Part shown: in pieces, positions 1,989-42,718 of the stretch
Numbering within the stretch: position 1 is the stretch's first letter
How the letters are laid out: the number at the start of each line of letters is the position of its first letter
Origin: an uncultured virus (IMG/VR IMGVR_UViG_3300010938_000025)
Lineage: Duplodnaviria > Heunggongvirae > Uroviricota > Caudoviricetes
Reading direction: 5' to 3' (one strand)
Length of the DNA: 64,000 nucleotides
IMG/VR virus record: IMGVR_UViG_3300010938_000025
Notes under the pieces: generated by a model
Told to the model about the DNA's origin: nothing
The model's input: only the letters and a program-made list of their open reading frames with translations
Databases searched by the model: none
Made by a program: the position numbers and the translations under genes

Positions 1989-2048
1989 GCATAACACTGC
2001 GACATTCGGAACGTATTACACAGTAACCGAACGGTCGCAGTGTTATGC
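1989..2048. other. Long hairpin with 15-bp perfect outer stem
   Basis: GCATAACACTGCGAC (1989-2003) / GTCGCAGTGTTATGC (2034-2048); inner TTCGG/CCGAA. Confidence 0.8.
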
Positions 2049-2890: not shown

Positions 2891-2927
2891 TTGACAAATT
2901 TGACAAGATGTGATATAATTGTGTCAA
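2891..2927 (+). promoter_or_regulatory. Consensus sigma70 promoter with possible overlapping operator
   Basis: TTGACA (2891)-17 bp-TATAAT (2914) with extended TG; second TTGACA at 2900 and inverted TGTCAA at 2922. Confidence 0.85.
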
Positions 2928-3118
2928 TCTGATTGTTTTTGCCACGAACCTGGCAAGGCCCGCGTGGTCCGCGCGACGGGCTGTGTCGGGGCCAGAGTCG
3001 ATCCGCAATAGGATACCGAAAGAGCTTTTTTGAAATACGGACTGCCACACCGCACTGAGCCTGCGGCCCAGGGCGATTCGACCCGCAGTAGGGTACTATA
3101 TTCAGGACCGACTGAGGT

Positions 3119-3343
3119 ATGCGGAGAACAGATTACGGCCTTGAAGGCCCCTTAATCCGACGGCGTCGAACGACCATCTATTTTACCGACGAAGAGTCCA
3201 GGATGATCAGCGACATAGCCCATAGCATGGGACTTGTGCCCGGCAACAGGCACTACGTCGCCTCGTTTGTGCTGCGGGAAACAATCCGCAGAATGCACCA
3301 GATCACCCAACTCACGGGTCGCGTCAACACTCTAAACACGTAG
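3119..3343 (+). CDS. Small putative DNA-binding protein (ribbon-helix-helix-like)
   Basis: RRTTIYFTDEE...IA...ASFVLRETI strand-helix-helix pattern; first gene after the early promoter. Confidence 0.55.
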   Translation: MRRTDYGLEGPLIRRRRTTIYFTDEESRMISDIAHSMGLVPGNRHYVASFVLRETIRRMHQITQLTGRVNTLNT

Positions 3344-3384
3344 AGCGAAGGTCAGGCCCTGCCTGTCTTTCGCTCTTTTTTTTT
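3342..3384 (+). terminator. Intrinsic terminator
   Basis: AGAGCGAA...TTCGCTCT stem followed by a T run directly after the stop codon. Confidence 0.8.
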
Positions 3385-4545
3385 GTTATACCCTGAAGTG
3401 CGGACACCGGTCACGGGTAAGCAATAAAAAACGGGGTGTTTCAGGGGGAAGGACCGATGTCCGCACCTCAGAGTATAACTTCACAACTAAAAAAGCAGCC
3501 TCGTCGCACTGACGGCAAGGCGATAGACCTACCTGACGAGAGGAGCCACACTCAAGCCGGCGTGTCAGAACCGGTGTGGCGTTGGTCAGACCACCACCGA
3601 CAACGGCGTTCGGTCAAATCTGACCGGGTCTATCAACCGTCCGTTCAGGGTTGCCGGGCTGGGCTTACACCAGATAAACCTGTACGTCGCCAGAGGCACG
3701 ACCGTCAGCCGGCACAGCCAAAAGCCCGTACAGACTAAAGACGGGCAGGGGAAATAGCCCCCCTGAACGCACCGGCAGTGCAACTCGACGCCCCAAAGTA
3801 AGTCACCACGCTGAGCCGGCACCTCAGCGCCACTTACCGACCGGGCCCCCGCGTGGGGCGTGCACGCAGGGACACGCACGTTGAAACCGCGGCCTGAGTG
3901 AAACCCTGGCTGGCTGAGAGTCAGGCCCGCAGCCTCGTGCGGAGATTGAACTTATAAATCCGTCTGGCCATTAGCCGCACGAACAGGCGAGTAACCGTTC
4001 GCAAACTGACATAAGCGAACGCCCTTAAGCGATCTGAACGAAAAAAGCGTGGGAGTAGTCTGTCTTCACGCCAGAACCGCGCCACGCCTTTTTTTTTGGG
4101 CGGGAAAAACTGTCGAAAATCACTGTACATAATATAAACACGCCGATACGGTGAGCATGGACACGGTCCAGGCACGACGGTTCAAAGACCGGTGTGAAGA
4201 CACTCCCACGCACCGACTTCCGGTCCGAACGACACCGGCCAGACTGAACGGCGCTCTAAATGGCGCCGTCCAGACTGGACTGAACCTCAAATGAGGGTAG
4301 TGGTTCTCAAAGAAAATTTTTCTATTACTGAGAGAACGACACCTGTCGGACCGGAGTCAAACACCGCGACAGTCCGACCGAAAAACACGAACCTGACGGA
4401 CGATAGACACCAGAACGTAGTCGATACGTCCGGTCGATGTAGACGTACGGTAATTCTGGTCGCGATTCGGTTAAAATCTGCGTGATTGGATTCCGCTTAT
4501 CGGATTTCGCTTAAACCTGAATGTGGCAACGTAAGCCACATATCT
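3385..4545. ncRNA. Candidate large structured non-coding RNA and/or replication origin
   Basis: ~1.15 kb with no convincing ORF and more than 15 local and nested inverted repeats (see findings). Confidence 0.45.
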
Positions 4546-4567
4546 GACGAAAGGAGTCAAAGCCGAT

Positions 4568-5245
4568 ATGTTGACCCGTGGTTGTGGACTGCGTCAGCCC
4601 GGCGCAGTCTACGCCGTGACCGCACTGTCAGCTCACGGCGTCCCATTAGAGTATTTCATCGTCGATCCACCTCAGCCGGTTGACTGCGCCGGGCTCGGCC
4701 TGACCGACCGCGGCGTTCGCATCCTGAATACAGGTGCGACCACCGTGGTCGCAGACGTGGTGGGTACAAACTACTATCCGTATGCGACTGACTTCCTGGA
4801 AGAGGTGCGCCGATTCGGCGCCAGCCGGCGACTCTCGCCGAAACTGGATTTCAGTCAGTTGGGACCGTTCAGTCGATTGTGGCTGATCCACCGGCGGGCC
4901 TACCTCAATAACTTCCAGGTATTGGTACCGCGCGTACAGGTCATCTGCCCTAAATACGTCCACCCACCTGAACCGGAGGTGTGCTGTATTAACCTCCTGT
5001 ACCACGTCTTCGATCCGCAGGACGTTGCACTGAAGTCAGACGCGCGCCCCAGCCGACGTATGCCGGCCTTCGAGTATCCGGTCTGGACCAGACCGGCCGG
5101 CTACACGCCCGACTACGTCCCGGCCCTCTTCCTGAATCTACCCATCTCTCGCCTGGAGGTCGTGCGTGCCGCCGACGGCTCGCACCGGAGTGCCTTAGCC
5201 CGGGCCCGCACGTCCAGCCTGGAAGTCGTGGAGGTGGACGCATGA
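4568..5245 (+). CDS. Hypothetical phage protein
   Basis: 225-aa ORF, AAGGAG RBS, coupled (ATGA) to the next gene. Confidence 0.75.
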   Translation: MLTRGCGLRQPGAVYAVTALSAHGVPLEYFIVDPPQPVDCAGLGLTDRGVRILNTGATTVVADVVGTNYYPYATDFLEEVRRFGASRRLSPKLDFSQLGPFSRLWLIHRRAYLNNFQVLVPRVQVICPKYVHPPEPEVCCINLLYHVFDPQDVALKSDARPSRRMPAFEYPVWTRPAGYTPDYVPALFLNLPISRLEVVRAADGSHRSALARARTSSLEVVEVDA

Positions 5246-6084
5246 CGACGCCGACGCTCCCCTCGATTCCGGCCTGGACCTGGCAGGATCGTCTGGTTAA
5301 TCTGGACGAACTGCCACCCGATTCACTGCTCGTCGGCCGCGCGCCGACCCGCAAGGAAATCGAACTCACCGCCCGCTTCGGTGTGATCGAACCGGTCGTT
5401 CTGGTGCAGCCTGACCCACACGGCCCCTTTCAGGTGGTCGATGGCCGCCGGCGCATCCGACGCGCCAGAGCCGCCGGCCTGAGGTCTATCCCGGCGCGCG
5501 TTCACGTCGGCCCGCCGCCCGGTCCAGTTGAGACGTTGTGTCTGGTGTTGAACACCGACCGGTCTGAAAATCTGGCCGCAGAATTAGACGCTGCCCTCCG
5601 CCTGGTCCAGAACCGGCCGCTGGAAGACGTCGCCGGTCAGTTGGGTCTGACCAGGGCGCAACTGGAGCGCGTCCTGCGCCTGAGTACCCTGAACCCGGAC
5701 CTCCTCCAGGCCGTCTTCGACGGCCGGTTGAGCGAGCACCTGGCCTTGAGAATCCGCACCCTGCCTCAGGCAATTCAGGCCGACCTGGCCGATCACCTGC
5801 AGCGCGCCGGCCGCCTGACACAACGCGACGTGACACGTGCCGTTCAGACCAGAACCAGCCTGGCCACTCAGAACCTGATGCTGGCTGCGCCGGAACTGGG
5901 CTGGCAGGCCACCGTTGCCGGCCACCTCCGGGCGGCCCTGGCTGCCCTCCCAGGTTCTGAACTGGAACTCGCCCAGGCAATCTATCATTGCCTGGCGCTA
6001 CTCGGAGAATCGCCATGCCCAGACAAACTGGAAAAACCCGTACCGGTCGGGCCAGCCCAGGCTACAGCCTGGCCTGCTGGCTGA
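5242..6084 (+). CDS. ParB/Srx N-terminal domain protein with HTH (ParB-like)
   Basis: GVIEPVVL, VVDGRRRIRRA arginine patch, LNTDRSEN, HTH EDVAGQLGLTRAQL. Confidence 0.85.
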   Translation: MTTPTLPSIPAWTWQDRLVNLDELPPDSLLVGRAPTRKEIELTARFGVIEPVVLVQPDPHGPFQVVDGRRRIRRARAAGLRSIPARVHVGPPPGPVETLCLVLNTDRSENLAAELDAALRLVQNRPLEDVAGQLGLTRAQLERVLRLSTLNPDLLQAVFDGRLSEHLALRIRTLPQAIQADLADHLQRAGRLTQRDVTRAVQTRTSLATQNLMLAAPELGWQATVAGHLRAALAALPGSELELAQAIYHCLALLGESPCPDKLEKPVPVGPAQATAWPAG

Positions 6085-6503
6085 CCGCCCGTAATGGCCA
6101 TACCGGACTGGAACATACGTTCAATCCGGATTGCCCGGTGTGTAAGCGCCTCCTGAAAGAGGCCAACGCCTGGCTGAAGGCCCCTTACCCACCGGGCGTC
6201 ATCAAATACGCCGTGCGCCTGGCCGAAGAGGAGATGTCCAAAAGTTCAGGCCGCCCCTGGCGGGCCGTCGCCTTTGCGCCAATCGGCTGGCTCAGCCGAC
6301 TCTCCGGTCAAAGGTTCATCGACATGGCCTGCCAGGGTCCGGAGATACCGGATATGCACGACCGATTCGCACTGCGAGCGTTCCTGTGCGAGTTCGGTAC
6401 TGACCTGACGGCCTGGTTCAGCCGGGATGCGCTGGCATCCTGGTGTGCCCTGGCCGACCTGGACCCGACGACCGTCCTCGACGGTGAGGTGGCCGATGGC
6501 TGA
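6015..6503 (+). CDS. Hypothetical protein upstream of helicase (CPVC motif)
   Basis: ORF overlapping both neighbours in the replication operon. Confidence 0.6.
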   Translation: MPRQTGKTRTGRASPGYSLACWLTARNGHTGLEHTFNPDCPVCKRLLKEANAWLKAPYPPGVIKYAVRLAEEEMSKSSGRPWRAVAFAPIGWLSRLSGQRFIDMACQGPEIPDMHDRFALRAFLCEFGTDLTAWFSRDALASWCALADLDPTTVLDGEVADG

Positions 6504-7803
6504 GTCTGATCTGGCCGCCGAAATCGCCTTGATCAGACATCTGGCCATGAAACCCGACCTGATCGTCCAGGCCAGACAGGCCGGCCTGTGCGTCGAGGCC
6601 TGTACCTTCCCACCCCTGAGGAGCCTGGTGGAAGTTTTGATGCGCTGTGTGTTGCACAACCCTAACGTCGGCCGGTTGACGCTGGCGTCGGAATTGCAAC
6701 ATAATAACACGTTGAAGCCGACGGAGATCGCACGCCTGCAAATGCTCTTAAATCCGCCGCCGGGCTTCACGTACCCGGAGCCGGGTATGGACTGGGTTGA
6801 AGCCCTGACAAAGGTGATCGGCATGTATGCCTATCGCGAGGGCACAAAAGTCCTGCGAGAACGCCTGGCGGCCTGGGACAGACACCCGCTGGACTTTCAG
6901 GTAGAAGTCACGGGCCTGGCGCAATACCTGATGCGCCTGGCCGCCACACCCAACGAGACGGGCCTGATCTCGGCCCTGCCGCAGGTGTCTACGGGTCCCG
7001 TCTCAACCGGCTACGCCGAGCTGGACCTGTGTACGGCCGGTGGCTATACGCCCGGCCTGTGGATGCTGGTGATGCCCTCCGAAGGCGGTAAATCGACGAC
7101 GATGGTCAATCTGATGGCCAACCTGATCCGTGCCGGCCGGCACGTGGTGTGCTTCTCCCCGGAGATGCACCCGACTACAGTCCGGGATTGGACGCTCTCG
7201 TGTCTGACCGGACTGTCGGTGCTCGACCTGAGCCAGCCGGATCGGTTGTCGCCGGCCGACCGATTGCGCCTGGAATCGGCTCAGTCACAGACGTCAACCT
7301 GCCTGCGCCTGTTCAGCCAGGTCAGGTCGATTGACCAGCTGGAAGCAACCATTGCCACCGTTAAGTCGCAGGTGGACGGCGTGGCCGCCGTCTTCTACGA
7401 CCACCTGGGCTACCTGCTCCCAGGCCCACGTGAGCGGGGCGGCTCCGGTGCCTACCAGGTGGACAGTATGGCCTATCGACTCCAGTCGATGGCCAACAGC
7501 CTGCAGGTGTGCATCGTCATGCTGGCCCAGATGTCACCGGAAGGGCTGGCCGACTGGCGTAAGCACCTGTACACGGATCGCGACAGTTCACGCTGGGGAC
7601 AGGGACCGTTCATCGCCAGCGACATCTACCTGATCGGCGGCCGTCACAACGGTCTGGATAAGAATAAAGTCTACAGCGCCGAACTGGCCCGGACCAATCT
7701 GTACTACCAGCGGAAAAATCGCCGCGGGTCCTACAAAGGCCGGTTCGCACTGAGACTGGTCGTCGGGAGTAAACGCCTGGAGGAAGTGCCTTATGACTTC
7801 TAA
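6496..7803 (+). CDS. DnaB-like (SF4) replicative helicase
   Basis: STGYAELD, Walker A MPSEGGKST, FSPEM, VFYDHL, MLAQ, KNRRG. Confidence 0.85.
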   Translation: MAESDLAAEIALIRHLAMKPDLIVQARQAGLCVEACTFPPLRSLVEVLMRCVLHNPNVGRLTLASELQHNNTLKPTEIARLQMLLNPPPGFTYPEPGMDWVEALTKVIGMYAYREGTKVLRERLAAWDRHPLDFQVEVTGLAQYLMRLAATPNETGLISALPQVSTGPVSTGYAELDLCTAGGYTPGLWMLVMPSEGGKSTTMVNLMANLIRAGRHVVCFSPEMHPTTVRDWTLSCLTGLSVLDLSQPDRLSPADRLRLESAQSQTSTCLRLFSQVRSIDQLEATIATVKSQVDGVAAVFYDHLGYLLPGPRERGGSGAYQVDSMAYRLQSMANSLQVCIVMLAQMSPEGLADWRKHLYTDRDSSRWGQGPFIASDIYLIGGRHNGLDKNKVYSAELARTNLYYQRKNRRGSYKGRFALRLVVGSKRLEEVPYDF

Positions 7804-10556: not shown

Positions 10557-10654
10557 CTCAGGCCGGCCTGACCGCCAGGCTGGTCACGCCGTGCGCAACA
10601 CGGTGCCGGAGGCCGACGGTTCGATTCCGTCGGTGGCGGTCAGGCCGGCCTGAG
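10557..10654 (+). ncRNA. tRNA-like structured element (not a canonical tRNA)
   Basis: 21-bp perfect terminal stem, internal hairpin, and T-arm CCGACGG-TTCGATT-CCGTCGG. Confidence 0.6.
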
Positions 10655-18469: not shown

Positions 18470-18550
18470 GGACCTGTGGTTGTCCCGCTGTAATTATACT
18501 CAAATCTTTGTGGGAGTCAAGTCCAGACCGGTTGACAATCGGTTATGTAC

Positions 18551-18579
18551 TTGACTATATTGCCTGTATGTGTTATAAT
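18551..18579 (+). promoter_or_regulatory. Sigma70-type promoter for the Phd-like/FtsK module
   Basis: TTGACT-17 bp-TATAAT with extended TG. Confidence 0.8.
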
Positions 18580-18832: not shown

Positions 18833-18983
18833 ACGTCGGTCAGGTGGCTGGCTGCGCCGGCTGCTATGCTATTTCGGCCGACACGAGCCGGAGCTGCACG
18901 TGCGGGCCGACTGGCTCAGGTGTCGGTATTGTCAGCGCCTTTTCAGAGTCAGAACCAGAACACAACATGTTCACCGCTCATAG
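18822..18983 (+). CDS. Small Cys/His protein (DUF1660-like)
   Basis: LLCYFGRH...CRYC. Confidence 0.5.
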   Translation: MTGKRRSGGWLRRLLCYFGRHEPELHVRADWLRCRYCQRLFRVRTRTQHVHRS

Positions 18984-20220
18984 GATCGAGAGTTTTCTGA
19001 ACGCTTATAATGCGCCGGCTGCCGTCCGGCGCATCAGCACCGGGCGGACCGGCGTGTTACGCTACCGGCTCGTCCCTATAGGCACCACCCGCTTTGCCCA
19101 GTTGCGGGCGTTGCAGGCTGATCTGGCCGCTCTGACCCAGGCCCAGAGCGCTCTGGTAGAGCAGACCGCCCAGGGAATTATCCTGACCCTCAATTGCCCC
19201 CGCCAGTTGTCGGCCGATTACGCGAGCCTGGTCAGGTCGATTGCCGAGCTGGACTTCCCGGTTGGGAATGTCTTACTCGGCCTGAACGAGGATGGCCTGC
19301 CGTTCACCCTCAATCTGGCCCATCCCCAGTTTTGCCACGTGGTTGTGGCAGGCCTGCCCGGCTCGGGTAAGACCAATCTGGCCCTGGGGATACTCGGCTC
19401 ATTGGTCTATGGCCGGGCATTGGGTGAGCTGGCCGTGGTGCTGGCCGATCCAAAGTTCAGCCCCACGCTGGGTCTGGCCGGGCTGTCCAGGTTACCGCAC
19501 CTGGTGCGACCGGTGGCGACCGGTATTCGCGCGACGGTCCAGCTCTTGAGCTGGCTGCGCCAGACGGTCGAGCGACGCAAGGTGAATGAGGACTATCCCC
19601 ACCTGGTCGCGTGTATCGACGACCTGGCCGCTGTCCTGGCCAACGGGGGGCGCGAGGTCGTAAACGATCTGGCCTATATTGCCGGCCTGGGACGCGAAAA
19701 AGGCGTGCATCTGATTCTGATCACGCAAACACTGCACTATAGCAGCGTCCCCAAGTCAATCGTGGATAATATCCCGGTGCGCATTGTCGGACGTGTAGGT
19801 AGTTCCGTAGCCGGTAGCGTTAACGCCGGCATGGGCGGAACGTTGAGTCACAAGCTGGGTAGACACCAGTTTAACGTGATCGTCGGTGATACGCATTTGC
19901 TATTCAGCATCGGGGTCACGCCGGAAAGTATTCTGAGCCTGATCCCGCCGCCGGCTTTACGAACTGATGAGTACCTGACCGCATCGGCCCAAGACGAGAT
20001 CGACTTTCCGGAGAGCCTCAACCCGTTGGATGTGGTCCGCCCCCTCTGGCAGCAGGCCGGTTGCCAGGAGGTGCGCGGCCTGAAGGCCGAGATGGCCAGC
20101 GCGCTGTGGGGTGACCGGTACTACGGGGGCAACCGGGCCAACATTTTGAACAATCTGATCGGACAACTCCGCCGGGAAACCGAGCCCGCCGGTGGCCTGC
20201 GGTTGGTTAGAGGAGGCTGA
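18967..20220 (+). CDS. FtsK/SpoIIIE-family P-loop ATPase (DNA translocase-like)
   Basis: HVVVAGLPGSGKT, LADPK, CIDDL, GREKGVHLILITQ. Confidence 0.88.
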   Translation: MFTAHRIESFLNAYNAPAAVRRISTGRTGVLRYRLVPIGTTRFAQLRALQADLAALTQAQSALVEQTAQGIILTLNCPRQLSADYASLVRSIAELDFPVGNVLLGLNEDGLPFTLNLAHPQFCHVVVAGLPGSGKTNLALGILGSLVYGRALGELAVVLADPKFSPTLGLAGLSRLPHLVRPVATGIRATVQLLSWLRQTVERRKVNEDYPHLVACIDDLAAVLANGGREVVNDLAYIAGLGREKGVHLILITQTLHYSSVPKSIVDNIPVRIVGRVGSSVAGSVNAGMGGTLSHKLGRHQFNVIVGDTHLLFSIGVTPESILSLIPPPALRTDEYLTASAQDEIDFPESLNPLDVVRPLWQQAGCQEVRGLKAEMASALWGDRYYGGNRANILNNLIGQLRRETEPAGGLRLVRGG

Positions 20221-20642: not shown

Positions 20643-21341
20643 TCACTTCCAGACGCACGTCACGTTGGGTGTGCGGCATAGTTCCTCAAATTTAAGCCGC
20701 GTGCGCTCGTCCTCGAGTGTACCGACCAGCACGACCAGCTTCGGCCTGGGCGTCTGAGTTGGACTCTCGACCGTCCGGGTTGGGGTGGGCGCCTGGGTTG
20801 GCGCAGGCGGTTTGATCGGGACGCCTTTCAGGCACAGTGCCACCCAGACCGGCCAGTTGTTCGCCTGCCAGCGGCCCAACTCTACCACCTCGACCTGCGC
20901 ATCAAGCAGGATCGCCGCATGTGGCGGACTGGTGAGCCAGGCATCAATCACCTCGGCCCCGCCCACAATGCCACACGCCACCGTCTCCCCGGCCCAATTG
21001 AAGCTCCCGCCTATGCTCCTGAACCAATCCCAGGCCCGTCGTCCTTGAGCGTCGCCATGCCGGCAATCGGTCACGGCAATGTAGTCGGCCAGGGCTTCTG
21101 CGTAACGCTGCACGGCCAGGGCTGCGGTTGTATCCGACCGGACCGGTGGCAATCCCCGCTCCTGGCGGACGATATTCAATCGCTCGAAGGCCAGGGCGCG
21201 CTCCTGCCGGTAGTCCTGGTCGGCGGCCGGCCCGGTCAGCCAGGTTGAACCGACCAGCGGTGGCGGTTCAACGGTCTGAATCTGGCACCTGGCGATAAAC
21301 ACGGCCAGGCCCGTTAGAATAATCAACGGCTTGAGTTGCAT
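20643..21341 (-). CDS. Exported CAP (SCP/Tpx-1) domain protein
   Basis: Signal/lipoprotein-like N-terminus; LNIVRQERGLPPV, GETVACG, IDAWLTSPPHAAILL; PT-rich linker. Confidence 0.85.
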   Translation of the reverse strand: MQLKPLIILTGLAVFIARCQIQTVEPPPLVGSTWLTGPAADQDYRQERALAFERLNIVRQERGLPPVRSDTTAALAVQRYAEALADYIAVTDCRHGDAQGRRAWDWFRSIGGSFNWAGETVACGIVGGAEVIDAWLTSPPHAAILLDAQVEVVELGRWQANNWPVWVALCLKGVPIKPPAPTQAPTPTRTVESPTQTPRPKLVVLVGTLEDERTRLKFEELCRTPNVTCVWK

Positions 21342-21348
21342 GGTCTCC

Positions 21349-21747
21349 TCAGATAATATCACTGAATCCGTAGACCGGCGGCTCACCAGGCGTGTACTCG
21401 ATGATCAGTAGCACCTGTTCGACCTGATACGCCTGCGCCGGCGTGTACTCGATGTCCAGTACAACCTGCTCAACCTGATACGATTGGGCCGGCGTGTACT
21501 CGACGTCCAGTACAACCTGCTCAACCTGATACGATTGGGCCGGCGTGTACTCGACGTCCAGTACAACCTGCTCAACCTGATACGATTGGGCCGGCGTGTA
21601 CTCGACGTCCAGTACAACCTGCTCAACCTGATACGATTGGGCCGGCGTGTACTCGACGTCCAGTACAACCTGCTCAACCTGATACGATTGGGCCGGCGTG
21701 TACTCGACGTCCAGTACAACCTGTTCGACTCGATTATCATATGCCAT
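21349..21747 (-). CDS. Repeat protein, 7 x 17-aa (VEQVVLDVEYTPAQSYQ)
   Basis: GAGGT RBS; ATG overlaps the upstream TGA; in-frame 51-nt repeats. Confidence 0.8.
   Translation of the reverse strand: MAYDNRVEQVVLDVEYTPAQSYQVEQVVLDVEYTPAQSYQVEQVVLDVEYTPAQSYQVEQVVLDVEYTPAQSYQVEQVVLDVEYTPAQSYQVEQVVLDIEYTPAQAYQVEQVLLIIEYTPGEPPVYGFSDII
21389..21728. repeat. 51-bp tandem repeat, ~7 copies
   Basis: Units start at 21389, 21440, 21491, 21542, 21593, 21644, 21695; central copies identical. Confidence 0.97.
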
Positions 21748-22739
21748 CAGCCTGACCTCACGCCGCACTCCAGCGCGTTGACTTTGGCCTGGGTCCAGGC
21801 ACCTGAGTCAGCCGGATCGGTCGTCCAGCGCGTCAGGTATGCCTGCCATGACAGGCTGATAGATTGGTCGGAGCCGGCATAGTCTGTGCCGCCCGACCGG
21901 ATGACGTTGGCGATGGTAGCCGGGTCGGCCTGTGTCTTCTGAGCCCTGGCCTCGGCGATGACCGCCTGGATGGTCGCCCCCGACGGCAGGCTGGGATTGG
22001 CCATCGAGTAGGTGTCCGTCTGGGCAGTAGCCGTGGTCGAGACGTAGTCGGACGACGACGGTGGAATCTCGTCTACGCATTGGTAATTCGCGCCGGCGGA
22101 TGGAGTCCACTGGGTTGTGGTCCCGGCTCCGTCTGGAACCACGGCGATATAGCGCCGGTCGCCGACCCAGCTATTGTCACTGGTACCGCTCGTGTCGTTG
22201 ACTGTGAAATCGTCGAAGTAGGTCGCCTGGGACGTGGTGTTACCAAACCCGCACAGTCTTAGCATATCGACATTCGTGTCTGTACCCGGCTTGGTATCAC
22301 CGGTGTAGTTAATCTCGGCGTTGCTATCTAACCTGACCTCAATCACCCCACCGGTATCAGCAATCTTAACGTGCAACTCCAACAGGTACCAGGTGTCAAC
22401 CGTCAGCACGGTTGTGCCGGTCGCCACCAGGGTTGTGCCAACATAAGCCTCCAGTCTGCGGGTCGTGAAATTCATCTTGATGTCACCCAGTAAGTTGCTA
22501 CTCTTATACCACCGCACGATGTTGTTGTACCCGCTCATGTCCTGGAAGCGTACACCAACGGCCATGTACCATTCCGACAGATTATTCAGACTGGCGATCA
22601 GACTATAGCCGCCGTAAGCCCGGCAGCTATAGGTCCCGGTGCGTGCATGTGTCGTGCTGGCACTCACGTAGGCATTGTCAGAAGGCGTGAACGGTAGCAG
22701 GTCACCGGCCTCAAAACCGCAGTTGTAGACTCTGGCCAT
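21747..22739 (-). CDS. Putative receptor-binding/fibre protein (ConA/LamG-like plus second beta-sandwich)
   Basis: GFEAG, DTWYLLELHV, YFDDF; T/S/G-rich; tail module position. Confidence 0.65.
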   Translation of the reverse strand: MARVYNCGFEAGDLLPFTPSDNAYVSASTTHARTGTYSCRAYGGYSLIASLNNLSEWYMAVGVRFQDMSGYNNIVRWYKSSNLLGDIKMNFTTRRLEAYVGTTLVATGTTVLTVDTWYLLELHVKIADTGGVIEVRLDSNAEINYTGDTKPGTDTNVDMLRLCGFGNTTSQATYFDDFTVNDTSGTSDNSWVGDRRYIAVVPDGAGTTTQWTPSAGANYQCVDEIPPSSSDYVSTTATAQTDTYSMANPSLPSGATIQAVIAEARAQKTQADPATIANVIRSGGTDYAGSDQSISLSWQAYLTRWTTDPADSGAWTQAKVNALECGVRSG

Positions 22740-29869: not shown

Positions 29870-30232
29870 CTATCCTACAATAACGACTTCACACGTATAG
29901 CGGCGGACCGGGTCAGAGCTCCAGGAGGCCTGGCCGCGTCGGCGTTCTGGGGTCAGGGTTACGATTCTGACCGTGCCCGACCAGCCCAGGTCGTCGGTCA
30001 GGGTGAAGCTACTCCCACTGGCCTGCAGGGAGAGGAGCTGAGCCCACAGGGTGTTACTGGCAGTCACGCCGCCGAACCGCCGGCGGGCGGTATAGCCGCC
30101 GGACTGAATCACGGGCGTATTCGAGCCGATCTCGGCCTGTTCGCTGATCCGTTCGACGTAGAAGATACCGGTGTCGCTTTCCGGGTTGACGTCGAATGCG
30201 ACTCCGGCGGCCGTCCACTTAGTCACCGACAT
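29870..30232 (-). CDS. Putative distal tail/tube-initiator-like protein
   Basis: Small beta protein between tape measure and hub; inferred from synteny. Confidence 0.55.
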   Translation of the reverse strand: MSVTKWTAAGVAFDVNPESDTGIFYVERISEQAEIGSNTPVIQSGGYTARRRFGGVTASNTLWAQLLSLQASGSSFTLTDDLGWSGTVRIVTLTPERRRGQASWSSDPVRRYTCEVVIVG

Positions 30233-30245
30233 ACTCAGACCTCAC

Positions 30246-30274
30246 TTGACCGGGTCGGCGTGGCGTGCTATAAT
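30246..30274 (+). promoter_or_regulatory. Sigma70-type promoter of the recombinase
   Basis: TTGACC-17 bp-TATAAT with extended TG. Confidence 0.8.
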
Positions 30275-30307
30275 TAGCTTCGTACAATCTATCTTGTACG
30301 AAGCTAA
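30274..30307. other. loxP-like 34-bp recombination site (13-8-13)
   Basis: TTAGCTTCGTACA-ATCTATCT-TGTACGAAGCTAA; perfect inverted arms; 14 bp upstream of the recombinase ATG. Confidence 0.85.
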
Positions 30308-30321
30308 ATGAGGACCCGAAA

Positions 30322-31356
30322 ATGACCATGACCATCGCCGATGCATTCGCTGCCTACTTCCGCCATCTCAAACACGTCCGCGCTCTGAGCGAACAAACCC
30401 TCAAAGCTTACCGCACCCCGGTTAATCACCTCGTCACGTTCTTATCCGTTCAGGGGTTGACCCCAGATTCGACACCGGTTGAGTCCATTTCGACGACGCT
30501 CATCATCGAGTTCCTGGCCTGGCTCGACGAACACCTGCAAAAACGCTCCGACCGCAGCGGTGCCCTCAAAACCCGACGTGTCTACCGCACCGCCATCGCC
30601 GGCCTCTTGAACTTCCTGGTCGTCGAATCACAACTCCTCCCCTGTTCGGTCGAAAATTACGATAGGTTATGTAAAATAATTCTGAGGGGCCTCAGAACCC
30701 CCGCCGCTCAGGCCGTATCGCCTGAGCGACTGCCGACCGATGAAATCGTCAGCCTGCTGCGTGCGACCGTCCAGCAGCCACCCGAACCGCCGGCCGATGC
30801 CACGCCGCACCTGATCCACCTGCAGCACCTGCGCCACCTGCGCGACGTCGCCATTTTCGAGACCCTGGTCAGCTCCGGCCTGCGGGTGGGTGAACTGGTC
30901 GGCCTGCGGCGTGGCAGGTTGCTGTATACCGAGATGGGTGCCATCGTCACCGGCAAGGGCGGTAAAACCCGCGAAGTGCTCCTGTCCCCCACCGCGTGGG
31001 CGGCTATCCAGGCTTACCTGTCTGCGCGCGACGATAGCCCAACTGCATCTTTAGCCGACCTGCCGGTCTTTGCCCGACACGACCGCAGCTCCGGCGACAT
31101 CCCCAAACCCATGACGACCCGCGCAGTCCAGTACATCTTCTACGATCTGGCCCGGCGTGCCCATATCCAGGAACGTTTTCACCTGACGCCCCACACCCTG
31201 CGCCATTTCTTCGCCACCACCTTCCTGAGCAAAACGGGTGATCTGGCCCTCACCCAATACGCACTGGGACATGCCTCACCTACGACCACCCGAGTGTATG
31301 CGCAGACCAGGCGAGAAGACTATCAGCGCGCCCATCGCCGGGTCTTTGAAGCCTAA
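30322..31356 (+). CDS. Tyrosine recombinase (XerC/D-like integrase family)
   Basis: SGLRVGEL, GKGGKTR, PHTLRHFFAT, LGHAS, TRVY catalytic set; N-terminal SAM-like domain. Confidence 0.95.
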   Translation: MTMTIADAFAAYFRHLKHVRALSEQTLKAYRTPVNHLVTFLSVQGLTPDSTPVESISTTLIIEFLAWLDEHLQKRSDRSGALKTRRVYRTAIAGLLNFLVVESQLLPCSVENYDRLCKIILRGLRTPAAQAVSPERLPTDEIVSLLRATVQQPPEPPADATPHLIHLQHLRHLRDVAIFETLVSSGLRVGELVGLRRGRLLYTEMGAIVTGKGGKTREVLLSPTAWAAIQAYLSARDDSPTASLADLPVFARHDRSSGDIPKPMTTRAVQYIFYDLARRAHIQERFHLTPHTLRHFFATTFLSKTGDLALTQYALGHASPTTTRVYAQTRREDYQRAHRRVFEA

Positions 31357-41797: not shown

Positions 41798-42718
41798 TTA
41801 AGTAATCTCCAGCCTCCAGAGACCGTACTCGTTCAGTACGGCGTAGGACAGGCGTTCGTCCCAAACGTAGTGATCCTCTTTCTTGTAGATGTCTACGTCT
41901 GAGGCCGTCCGGGTATCCCCCAACTGCGTCTTGACGCCAACCATGCTCGGCGCAACGCTGAAGTATACGTAGTTGGACGGAACCGTATGCCTGGCAATCC
42001 AGGCCGCCCCGCCGTAGTTGGAGATGTAGCCTTGTCGGAGAATCTCTTCGCCCCGCTCCGGTCCTGTCAGCCACATGCCGTCCGCCGGCCAGGTCCAGCT
42101 GGTCATATCCATAGCCCGACCGGTGTTGATGACCACCTGCGTAATCTGCCAGCCTGCAGCATTGGCCGAGGCAAAAATGCTGTCCACAGCCGCCTTGGTC
42201 ATGCTCGAAGCGACGGTGGGAGTATGCCCGGCCACGCTCGACACGGCCGCATCCAACACGGCCTGGGCCAGGGCATCTCGCTTGCGGGCCAGCTCCTCGG
42301 CGCATTCGACCTGCTTGCGCGCCAGGACATCCCAGCCGGCGTTGGCCATATCATCCCAGCCGATGGCCAGACCGACATCGATCATGGTGAAGTCGGGTCG
42401 GAAATACCGCCGGCCAGGTCGGGTGAACAGCGCCTGTCCGGTCGGACCGGTGTAGAAGGCGGCGCAGGTGTAGTCGTCCAGCGGTAACGCCGGGTCTTCA
42501 CCATCCTTCAGGTTACGCTGGACGAAGAACGTCTGTGTCCACTCAACGTAAGGCGCGATCTTGCGGATGGGTTCGATCAGGGCCGCGGCCAGCTGGTGAT
42601 GCATGTTGACGTCGGTGGAGCGGCCGACTCGCCTGAGTAGAGCGTTGATTTGCTGTTTGCCGGCAGCCGTGATGATCAGTTCTCCACGCTGCGGATCGTA
42701 CTTGTATAGCTCAGCCAC
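41798..42718 (-). CDS. Major capsid protein (probably HK97 fold)
   Basis: 306 aa, strong AGGAGG RBS, position after protease/scaffold and decoration genes. Confidence 0.8.
   Translation of the reverse strand: MAELYKYDPQRGELIITAAGKQQINALLRRVGRSTDVNMHHQLAAALIEPIRKIAPYVEWTQTFFVQRNLKDGEDPALPLDDYTCAAFYTGPTGQALFTRPGRRYFRPDFTMIDVGLAIGWDDMANAGWDVLARKQVECAEELARKRDALAQAVLDAAVSSVAGHTPTVASSMTKAAVDSIFASANAAGWQITQVVINTGRAMDMTSWTWPADGMWLTGPERGEEILRQGYISNYGGAAWIARHTVPSNYVYFSVAPSMVGVKTQLGDTRTASDVDIYKKEDHYVWDERLSYAVLNEYGLWRLEIT

Follow-up and report, generated by a model that had tools for sequence, protein, structure and literature searches.

In the stretch of DNA analyzed here, a 64,000-nucleotide window of an uncultured, temperate phage, a gene-free gap of 1,224 bases extends from the stop of a small gene (3119-3343) to the ATG at 4568, where the replication module begins. 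Our best explanation for this region, to which we assign a probability of roughly 40%, is that it is a non-coding regulatory leader or spacer of the early rightward operon, placed before the replication genes, and not a giant structured RNA. A sequence-only reading had proposed that 3385-4545 is a large ncRNA or an RNA-controlled origin. A non-coding region with a few very strong structures and a strand-specific composition was indeed observed, but neither a single giant RNA nor an RNA-controlled origin was supported.

Coding status and the upstream boundary

Only short ORFs were present between 3343 and 4568 and none scored as coding, which agrees with the claim that the region is ORF-poor. 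All 14 ORFs and fragments from inside it had codon scores of +0.066 per codon or less, as compared with 0.263 +/- 0.076 for 34 training genes and -0.141 +/- 0.213 for 151 wrong-frame ORFs. None of the 18 stop-to-stop fragments of the region gave a PHROG or Pfam match better than E 0.04, the three longest reading frames had no homologues, and no match to the region's frames was found among 1.84 billion protein representatives. Two phmmer matches to these frames were repeat proteins that BLASTP does not align. Thus, a protein-coding gene, either intact or frameshifted, was not supported by coding statistics, families or homologues. The sole coding-like signal was a weak 3-base periodicity in 3500-3800 (chi2 9.4, reached by 22 of 2000 shuffles), an interval picked post hoc. 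A pseudogene or duplicate of the downstream gene was also rejected: when 4520-6100 was compared with the region by tblastn and blastn, only a 22-nt RBS-like repeat (E 0.24) was detected.

The only strong plus-strand promoter upstream of the region is P1 (2891-2919), a consensus sigma-70-type promoter (TTGACA-17-TATAAT with TG before the -10 element, 12/12 matches). Within 3300-4600, a scan with the sigma-70 consensus alone, which may not be that of the host, found no site of at least 9/12 on either strand; the best reached 8/12, the score of the best minus-strand candidate (4157-4129). The small gene (plus strand, 74 aa, GC3 0.67, codon score +0.081) is located in the Cro position, opposite the minus-strand gene 2202-2756. 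The latter looks HTH-like by eye. The small gene may be RHH-like, a judgment also made by eye, and it had no match in Pfam, PHROG or NCBIfam. The structure of its 5' UTR was not unusual (z -0.6).

Within the stop codon of the small gene begins T1 (3342-3384, plus strand), an intrinsic terminator with 16-nt arms (3342-3357 and 3361-3376), a 3-nt loop and a run of nine T residues (3376-3384). T1 is a stable GC-rich hairpin placed directly before a U tract, as is characteristic of such terminators, and its fold (MFE -24.5 kcal/mol, z -6.83) was matched in stability by 0 of 200 shuffles. There are only two T9 runs in the 64 kb, the tails of T1 and of a second, terminator-like element, T2; both are on the plus strand and immediately 3' of hairpins.

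Helices, terminators and the central segment

The T tract of T1 is immediately adjoined by the inverted repeat I1 (3385-3479), which has 28-nt arms (25 of 28 positions complementary) and a 39-nt spacer. It is the longest among 59 local inverted repeats of the window, where its arm sequence occurs once, and its fold z was -4.38 on the plus and -8.29 on the minus strand. Each of the three mismatches is a transition and becomes a G-U pair when the minus strand is read, an asymmetry that is not significant because its chance is about 1 in 4 (two-sided). The second-longest local repeat, at 10557-10654, is a perfect 21-bp helix located between plus-strand genes.

I1 is also relevant to the idea, which we consider very unlikely, that the region does encode a protein, which would be small, basic and disordered. 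The frame 3421-3738 is open, and a 94-codon ORF could start at an ATG (3457) within the 3' arm of I1, with an SD-like GGAAGGA in the I1 loop, so that I1 would gate its translation; likewise, the ATG of 2045-2236, a plausible small gene, lies within a second hairpin of the window (1989-2048). However, the codon score of the 94-codon ORF (-0.25 per codon, GC3 0.51) was wrong-frame-like and the second-lowest among the ORFs scored in the region. In addition, this ORF had no family match in Pfam or PHROG and no homologue in 5.8 billion clusters, and an open frame of 105 codons is expected by chance in a sequence containing 14% T, as estimated from composition.

T2 (4047-4097, plus strand) consists of A6, a 6-bp GC stem, a 29-nt structured loop and T9, and its upstream A tract gives it the look of a bidirectional terminator. 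AAAAAAGCGTGG and CCACGCCTTTTT pair at T2 with at least 11/12 complementary bases. The T2 hairpin is weak (z -0.90 on the plus and -2.02 on the minus strand). Thus, T2 resembles an intrinsic terminator only in part, as it has the T9 tract and the GC stem but a hairpin no stabler than shuffles. The 5' arm of a longer helix, IR-B (4047-4211), is shared with the T2 stem. IR-B pairs 4047-4056 with 4202-4211 (10/10) and 4061-4072 with 4191-4202 (11/12) with a 5-nt bulge and surrounds both the T9 tract and a patch rich in A and T. When 4036-4365 was folded, IR-B was predicted for either strand, in the MFE as well as the centroid structure. Next to it is a four-way junction (4214-4360), in which a 13-14 bp stem closes around H1 (4236-4281), a 4-bp hairpin and a hairpin with an AT-rich loop (~4300-4340). 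The junction had z values of -7.46 (plus) and -7.01 (minus), and H1 by itself -5.22. For 4036-4365, which covers both IR-B and the junction, the values were -8.58 and -7.53, and 0 of 100 shuffles were equally stable. The junction is part of a 314-nt double domain (4047-4360). As these inverted repeats fold about equally on both strands, the strong elements could also act as DNA. T1, I1, T2 and the helix 4047-4072/4191-4211 were all absent from the features listed in the sequence-only reading.

The 14 inverted-repeat pairs that had been reported were all found inside 3385-4545, those reported with a position being located at that position, and we asked how unusual such repeats are. Perfect inverted repeats of at least 6 nt with loops of up to 60 numbered 36 in the region compared with 12.7 +/- 3.4 in shuffles, and this count was reached by 0 of 200 dinucleotide shuffles. 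Window pieces of the same size had 21.7 +/- 6.8 such repeats on average, with 2 of 50 reaching 36, and for longer loops 4 to 10 of 50 pieces, depending on the setting, reached the region's count. The excess over chance therefore holds against shuffles for loops of up to 60, but most pairs are ordinary and those with longer loops are unremarkable. A suggested long-range pairing of 3628-3652 with ~4384-4408 does exist, with 72% complementarity, but this is at chance level by a binomial estimate, and it was not among the six pairs reaching 11/12 complementary bases. The idea that 3627-3657 is a 'hub' with numerous pairing partners, similar to P4-type RNA immunity, was likewise unsupported at 11/12 stringency.

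Among 200-nt fold windows, only 3201-3500 and 4101-4400 stood out. The segment 4098-4567 had MFE z values of -4.9 (plus) and -3.0 (minus), and ten coding controls ranged from +0.3 to -5.0. Between the strong elements lies segment C (3480-4046, plus strand), which is non-coding, T-poor (14%) and rich in A and C, and carries a chain of ~10 short hairpins. Its z values (-3.0 on the plus and -2.0 on the minus strand) were inside the range of the coding controls. In the folding test that had been suggested, the central 570 nt were thus no more stable than coding stretches from the window. The AT skew of segment C (0.293) is the window's most extreme A-over-T value, equalled in 0 of 1269 windows, and the other top-ranked windows lie inside genes, with A enriched on the sense strand. 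Tandem Repeats Finder detected only a weak array (16 nt x 2.4, 3707-3744) in the region. Four of the 13 window copies of CCCTGAA are clustered in 3391-3767, which was noticed post hoc. The TCCGGTCCGA motif was rejected as region-specific, as it is over-represented throughout the window (20 matches, 6.8 expected).

Segment C and its flanks could also be explained by a moron-like insertion of 713 bases (3386-4098) into the T tract of T1, which would have brought its own terminator; the inserted gene would since have decayed, leaving a largely functionless block whose many small hairpins are incidental. The identical 11-mers C-T9-G at 3375-3385 and 4088-4098 bracket exactly this block, the 3-base periodicity is limited to part of it, segment C folds like coding DNA, its T-poor sequence is estimated to yield long open frames by chance, and relatives of the neighboring 225-aa gene lack any such region. 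However, no frame matches a protein family or any of the protein representatives, no similarity to the neighboring gene and no terminal inverted repeats were detected, and the strong elements I1 and 4047-4360 would be left unexplained. In addition, the repeated 11-mer is of low complexity and may be just two similar terminator tails. We regard such an insertion as unlikely.

Relatives, RNA families and the downstream boundary

An Rfam scan, which had been suggested as a test, found 0 matches anywhere in the window when gathering thresholds were applied. At E <= 10, 3000-5000 had 10 weak matches, the best being a miRNA hairpin model on I1 (22 bits, gathering score 77). Among RNAI and ctRNA models, the best was ctRNA_pGA1 (16.5 bits, gathering score 45), which lies on T1. 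One large GOLLD/ROOL-like RNA, as had been envisaged, is not supported by these results, nor by the coding-like folding of the central 570 nt.

As the region ends in plus-strand terminators, some non-coding plus-strand RNA is likely. It is rather unlikely, in our view, that this corresponds to one or two discrete ncRNAs, of ~0.7 kb (from I1 to T2) and/or ~0.3 kb (4047-4360), made from their own non-consensus promoter or cut from a read-through transcript. T2, with no gene before it, implies a non-coding transcript end, and I1 at the 5' end with T2 at the 3' end fits the usual anatomy of stable bacterial RNAs, which is a 5' hairpin and a 3' terminator. The extreme strand-specific composition, the local hairpin count (above 200 of 200 shuffles and 48 of 50 genome pieces) and the stability of 4036-4365 are also consistent with such RNAs. 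They are difficult to reconcile with the lack of a promoter-like site of at least 9/12 on either strand, with folding of segment C no better than that of coding controls, and with the absence of an Rfam family or detected relatives; RNA-specific loop motifs were not seen by eye. A more far-reaching version, in which the ~0.7-kb I1-to-T9 RNA and the 0.3-kb double domain would form a new, single-member class of large phage RNA, acting on phage replication (e.g., as an origin primer or activator transcript) or in trans on the host, appears decidedly improbable to us.

No relatives of the region were found in any collection searched. DNA similarity to 3300-4600 was absent from 50,697 phage records and 72,556 plasmids, and the phage itself had no detectable relatives in the collections searched. 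The DnaB-like, small RHH-like and major head proteins had no relative in viral contigs, and a tblastn search of phage records was negative for the 225-aa protein, the helicase and the head protein. When viral contigs were scanned for exact patterns taken from I1, H1 and IR-B, 1, 0 and 7 loci were retrieved, all of which were rejected as chance matches of 16-18 bases, as the similarity did not extend beyond them.

The downstream end of the region comprises a 7-bp hairpin (4521-4541), a Shine-Dalgarno GGAG (4553-4556) and the ATG at 4568 (4521-4570 in total, plus strand). The module starting there encodes a 225-aa protein, a ParB-like and a DnaB-like protein, and the long ORFs listed from 4568 to ~20 kb are mostly on the plus strand. 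The 225-aa protein has no recognizable fold or family: its AlphaFold model (pLDDT 73) matched no PDB entry at E <= 0.001, and the Atlas offered no usable lead. Its gene does have conserved relatives, as 13 loci with 38-51% identity were detected (1 viral, 10 metagenomic, 2 genomic). None of the 13 showed DNA similarity to the region. In the inspected loci with enough upstream sequence (L001, L003-L005 and L007), the relative is immediately preceded by another gene. In L013, the upstream DNA, as we read it, appears to contain a repressor gene, operators and another small gene.

The position of the strong structures next to this module raises the possibility of a DNA-level replication element, in which 4047-4567 would be an origin or a single-strand initiation or primosome-loading signal for the DnaB-like module, perhaps activated by transcription from P1. 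This block contains long inverted repeats around AT-rich patches, the four-way hairpin cluster and two exact tandem copies of the 12-mer GGATTYCGCTTA (4488-4513, plus strand, period 14), which are immediately upstream of the last hairpin. It lies directly before the replication module, its GC content falls to 52%, and two of the top 25 in a ranking of the window's 40-nt patches by AT content (ranks 10 and 16) fall within it. As would be expected of DNA palindromes, its structures have the same stability on either strand, and no initiator gene was recognized elsewhere. However, we found no iteron array there, i.e., three or more direct repeats beside an AT-rich element; the 12-mer has just two copies, and across the window it occurs at chance level (5 observed and 5.4 expected at up to 2 mismatches). 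A far better iteron candidate is the striking array at 1-315, where an 11-mer is repeated 27.9 times within 86-nt units that are 100% identical. The window had 0 parS-like matches to a consensus, cumulative GC skew has no turning point in the block, the 225-aa neighbor has no recognizable fold or family, and relatives of this neighbor lack such an upstream region. A replication element is improbable in our estimation. The RNA-controlled origin proposed earlier found no support either, as the sigma-70 scan found no convergent promoters, and there is no ctRNA or RNAI match above noise and no iteron array in the region.

A proposed leader of the early operon and known systems

The leader reading is supported by a perfect promoter upstream with no site of at least 9/12 inside 3300-4600, by the strength of T1 and the fact that the only T9 runs of 64 kb end T1 and T2, and by the non-coding scores, the plus-strand long ORFs downstream and the skew of segment C. 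Further support comes from I1 as the longest local repeat, from the z of -8.6 for 4036-4365, and from 10557-10654, which also lies between plus-strand genes. We infer that the region is transcribed under regulated termination and that its helices undergo processing. Transcription from P1 would read the small Cro-position gene and mostly halt at T1. Polymerase escaping T1 would transcribe I1 and the T-poor segment C and then reach T2, and the replication-module genes would be reached only by transcripts passing both terminators. In read-through RNA, the 5' half of T2 would re-pair with 4191-4211, and the re-paired helix and the four-way junction would then form the double domain, directly before the first gene of the replication module. 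I1 and IR-B may serve as RNase III-type processing or stability sites. Their helices (21-28 bp) are long enough for double-strand-specific RNase sites, RNase III needing ~20 bp or more (I1, 28 bp with 3 mismatches; IR-B, 10 + 11 bp), and cleavage there would split the regulator message from the replication message. What counts against a leader is that the strong elements fold on either strand with about the same stability, that the T2 hairpin alone is no stabler than shuffles, that no antitermination signal was found and no antiterminator protein was recognized, and that 1.2 kb is very long for such a role.

Several known systems share features with this region. GOLLD and ROOL are large structured RNAs of phages and prophages, and the phage context and several hundred gene-free nucleotides are reminiscent of them; unlike these RNAs, the region has no Rfam match and no family of relatives, and its central part is thermodynamically unexceptional. 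RNA-controlled plasmid origins (ColE1 RNA II/RNA I and ctRNA systems) and the origin of lactococcal phage c2, which is transcribed and non-coding, resemble it as non-coding, structured, probably transcribed regions beside replication functions. However, the ColE1 and ctRNA origins differ from it in that our sigma-70 scan found no convergent promoter pair and the RNAI/ctRNA matches were not above noise. Were it to prove a discrete RNA or an origin, the region would represent a new element. Lambdoid morons are independent inserted transcription units with their own terminator at the end. The block 3386-4098 is similar, as it ends in its own terminator, follows right behind another and is bracketed by an identical 11-mer, but it has neither a promoter nor an intact gene.

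RNase III hairpins are present in phage polycistronic RNAs, such as the T7 early and late intergenic sites, the lambda N leader and sib. The helices predicted here are likewise intergenic, in a one-directional operon, and extend over about two or more turns (I1, IR-B with ~21 bp, and 10557-10654), but, unlike the compact bipartite stems of the T7 type, they enclose large internal loops or multi-branch domains.

Lambdoid early operons are punctuated by terminators (cro, nutR, tR1 and cII-O-P in lambda; put sites in HK022). A divergent pair of repressor and Cro-position genes and a strong early promoter are also present here, and with intrinsic terminators between the Cro-position and replication genes, expression of the latter would need read-through, as in lambdoids. 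In contrast to lambdoids, no N- or Q-like protein and no put-like 5' element were recognized, and a lambda-type nut site was not supported, as no boxA-like sequence matched between P1 and the end of the region (rrn-type consensus, up to 3 mismatches: none in 2900-4600; 26 in the window, 24.3 expected). The spacer is also longer (1.2 kb versus ~0.2 kb) and contains two T9 terminators and very long helices. At present, the region is a single unconfirmed example, and its main value lies in offering a candidate for straightforward testing at the bench. If the leader reading is true, the lack of a recognizable antitermination factor would point to an unknown way past the terminators, and a Cro-position regulator parted from the replication genes by two terminators and 1.2 kb of structured RNA would represent an unusually elaborate version of lambdoid read-through control.

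Coding potential and relatives of the gene-free stretch

Between the stop codon of the small gene at 3119-3343 and the ATG at 4568, a stretch of 1,224 bases contains short ORFs only, which bears out the ORF-poor character proposed in the sequence-only reading. We scored these ORFs by codon-usage log-odds, with 34 long genes from the window as the training set; per codon, the training genes themselves score 0.263 +/- 0.076. Inside the region, none of the 14 candidate ORFs and fragments exceeded +0.066, and the longest ORF (3436-3738) scored -0.25; wrong-frame ORFs within real genes gave -0.141 +/- 0.213 (n=151). For the 18 stop-to-stop fragments, no match in PHROG or Pfam went below E 0.04, and the two longest frames had no homologue in a collection of 5.8 billion clusters. 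The frame with the best composition (3527-3754) matched just two large repeat proteins among 1.84 billion representatives, and BLASTP gave no alignment with the better of them. The sequence is 14% T and therefore, by our estimate, open frames of ~100 codons are expected by chance. The sole coding-like signal was a weak 3-base GC periodicity at 3500-3800, an interval picked after inspecting the data (chi2 9.4, reached by 22 of 2000 shuffles). A small basic protein might start at ATG 3457, inside the 3' arm of a long inverted repeat (I1, 3385-3479); however, the codon statistics are contrary and homologues are absent, and we consider this very improbable. Within the region, we found nothing that resembles a second copy of the downstream gene. 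The region probably gives rise to a non-coding transcript.

The window derives from an uncultured source and is the genome or prophage of a tailed, temperate-type phage. Among its proteins, PHROG profiles identified a major head protein (41798-42718, minus strand), an integrase (30322-31356), a ParB-like protein (5242-6084) and a DnaB-like helicase (6427-7803), as well as tail proteins and several DNA methyltransferases. Close relatives of the phage were not detectable in the collections searched. The DNA of the studied region had no match in 50,697 phage records and 72,556 plasmids and no relative in any collection searched. The 225-aa product of the downstream gene (4568-5245), the head protein and the helicase gave no tblastn match in phage records, and the helicase, the head protein and the small upstream protein had no relative in IMG/VR contigs. 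Thirteen relatives of gene 4568-5245 were found, with identity of just 38-51%. Among those inspected with enough upstream sequence, either another gene lies immediately 5' or a repressor-operator module is present (L013), and therefore the studied block is not a conserved companion of this gene. The region is a single, unconserved example.

The 225-250-aa proteins encoded by 4568-5245 and its relatives form a conserved family that heads replication modules. Nine sequences share 58 invariant positions, including three Cys and one His; the family has no match in Pfam, PHROG or NCBIfam, and the AlphaFold model of the 225-aa protein (pLDDT 73) has no fold match in PDB. In L013, a cyanobacterial MAG contig carrying the closest relative, a 38-nt hairpin with 11-nt arms is repeated (4528-4565 and 4904-4941) just 5' of the RBSs of two consecutive genes.

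Structure concentrated in a few elements

Each of the 14 inverted repeats named in the sequence-only reading was found in the region. Their excess over chance varies with the standard of comparison. The region has 36 perfect stems of at least 6 nt with loops up to 60 nt, versus 12.7 +/- 3.4 in dinucleotide shuffles (36 reached by 0 of 200) and 21.7 +/- 6.8 in equal-length pieces elsewhere (reached by 2 of 50); with longer loops, 4 to 10 of the 50 pieces reached its count. The genome is GC-rich and inverted repeats are abundant throughout. A proposed long-range pairing of 3628-3652 with ~4384-4408 is 72% complementary, which we estimate to be at chance level, and is not among the six pairs reaching 11/12 complementarity (1.2 +/- 1.1 in shuffles; six reached by 0 of 100). 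Five of these six belong to I1, to the terminator-like element T2 and to the helix 4047-4072/4191-4211 (IR-B). The heptamer CCCTGAA occurs 13 times in the window, and four of these copies, two per orientation, lie within 377 nt (3391-3767), a post hoc observation; they could pair alternatively as 3440-3448/3759-3767 (9/9) or 3639-3650/3761-3772 (11/12).

The structured character is real and is concentrated in a few elements absent from that earlier list. In 200-nt windows, just 3201-3500 and 4101-4400 were conspicuous. A single hairpin at the start of 3385-4100 accounts for most of the z-scores of that segment (-3.8 and -5.2), and the centre, 3480-4046 (567 nt; z -3.0 on the plus strand, -2.0 on the minus strand), is within the range of ten coding controls (+0.3 to -5.0). 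Rfam gave no match at gathering thresholds in the whole window and weak hairpin-type matches only in 3000-5000. The earlier proposal is partly confirmed: its non-coding and structured character survives, and a GOLLD/ROOL-like giant RNA is unsupported.

The first element, terminator T1 (3342-3384, plus strand), begins within the stop codon of the small gene and consists of a hairpin with 16-nt arms followed by nine T (MFE -24.5 kcal/mol, z -6.8). Immediately adjoining its T tract is I1, with 28-nt arms (25/28 complementary) and a 39-nt spacer, the longest among 59 local inverted repeats in the 64-kb window (z -4.4 on the plus strand, -8.3 on the minus strand). Its three mismatches are all transitions that leave G-U pairs on the minus strand, which is not significant (~1 in 4 by chance). 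T2 (4047-4097, plus strand) comprises A6, a 6-bp GC stem, a structured loop and nine T; its hairpin by itself is weak (z -0.9). T runs of at least seven occur at four places in the window, and T runs of nine are confined to T1 and T2, each on the plus strand, immediately 3' of a hairpin and within an identical 11-mer, C-T9-G. This repeated 11-mer would flank a moron-like 713-bp insertion, since decayed, which we regard as improbable.

IR-B (4047-4056/4202-4211, 10/10; 4061-4072/4191-4202, 11/12) has its 5' arm in common with T2 and surrounds the T tract and an AT-rich patch. It is followed by a four-way junction (4214-4360; z -7.5 on the plus strand, -7.0 on the minus strand), and no shuffle of 100 was as stable as helix and junction together (4036-4365; z -8.6 and -7.5). 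A discrete non-coding RNA might end at T2, and/or the 4047-4360 domain might be a separate RNA; we consider this unlikely.

Two further repeats were observed. One, at 1989-2048, has perfectly paired 15-bp arms separated by 30 nt, and a plausible small gene (2045-2236, 63 aa) has its ATG in the 3' arm; I1, with its ATG at 3457, has the same geometry. The other, a perfect 21-bp repeat at 10557-10654 and the second-longest local repeat of the window, lies between two plus-strand genes and surrounds a core that resembles a tRNA and has a canonical GGTTCGATTCC T-arm. It matches the tRNA-Sec model weakly (18.4 bits, E 0.65), and ARAGORN found no tRNA there; possible roles are a tRNA-like or Y-RNA-like module and a processing site.

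Transcription signals and a possible operon leader

A sigma-70 promoter of perfect consensus (TTGACA-17-TATAAT with TG; 2891-2919, plus strand) faces the small gene. It is overlapped by TTGACA/TGTCAA repeats. Promoters in the divergent orientation point towards the minus-strand gene 2202-2756, and a near-consensus minus-strand promoter is at 2747-2719. By eye, the product of gene 2202-2756 has a helix-turn-helix-like stretch and the small protein is RHH-like, neither supported by any profile. The 2202-2920 segment is likely an immunity switch. Three near-consensus promoters (11/12 each), divergent, at 18493-18579, upstream of an FtsK-like gene (18844-20220), form a second regulatory hub. On both strands of 3300-4600, no promoter-like site reached 9/12 (best 8/12), judged by the sigma-70 consensus only. 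The A-over-T skew of 3480-4046, 0.293, is the most extreme of the window (reached by 0 of 1269 windows). Other top windows lie inside genes whose sense strand is A-rich, and this points to plus as the sense strand here.

We propose, with a probability of about 0.4, that the region is a non-coding leader of the early rightward operon acting by attenuation and RNA processing or stabilisation. The order would be promoter, small regulator gene, strong terminator, long hairpin, 570-nt spacer and second terminator, then a 314-nt structured domain and the RBS of the first replication-module gene. Since no internal promoter is recognisable, the replication genes would depend on read-through past both terminators. 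The helices here, at 21-28 bp, have the length required by double-strand-specific RNases and may serve processing or stabilisation. The proposal is based on the operon anatomy, the missing internal promoter, the helix lengths and the placement of the 10557-10654 repeat, which, like the leader helices, sits between plus-strand genes; transcription, regulation and cleavage are all inferred. No antitermination device is shown: the region lacks a boxA-like sequence and the 5' UTR is unstructured.

An RNA-controlled origin, as suggested earlier, is not supported. We also doubt that 4047-4567 holds a DNA-level origin or a signal for single-strand initiation: it has neither iterons nor a GC-skew turning point, and a much better iteron array is present at 1-315. 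At 1-331, an 11-nt unit (GTGACACAGGC-like) recurs 27.9 times within a larger 86-nt unit, itself present in 3.6 copies of 100% identity. This array reaches the first base of the window and ends just 5' of a TATAAT-like box and a DnaJ-domain gene. It may well serve as iterons, as a centromere or for repressor binding, and its motif is absent from the studied region. Cumulative GC skew over the window peaks at 30198. An AT-rich palindrome at 30269-30321 (AGCTTCGTACAA ... TTGTACGAAGCT), directly 5' of the integrase gene amid minus-strand tail genes, is a candidate attP core. At 21338-21796, a 51-nt unit occurs in seven tandem copies, up to 93% identical, that adjoin or overlap minus-strand ORFs 20643-21386 and 21349-21768.

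Known systems with which the operon leader and its alternatives may be compared are lambda nut/tR1, HK022 put, the T7 RNase III sites, ColE1, phage c2 and morons.
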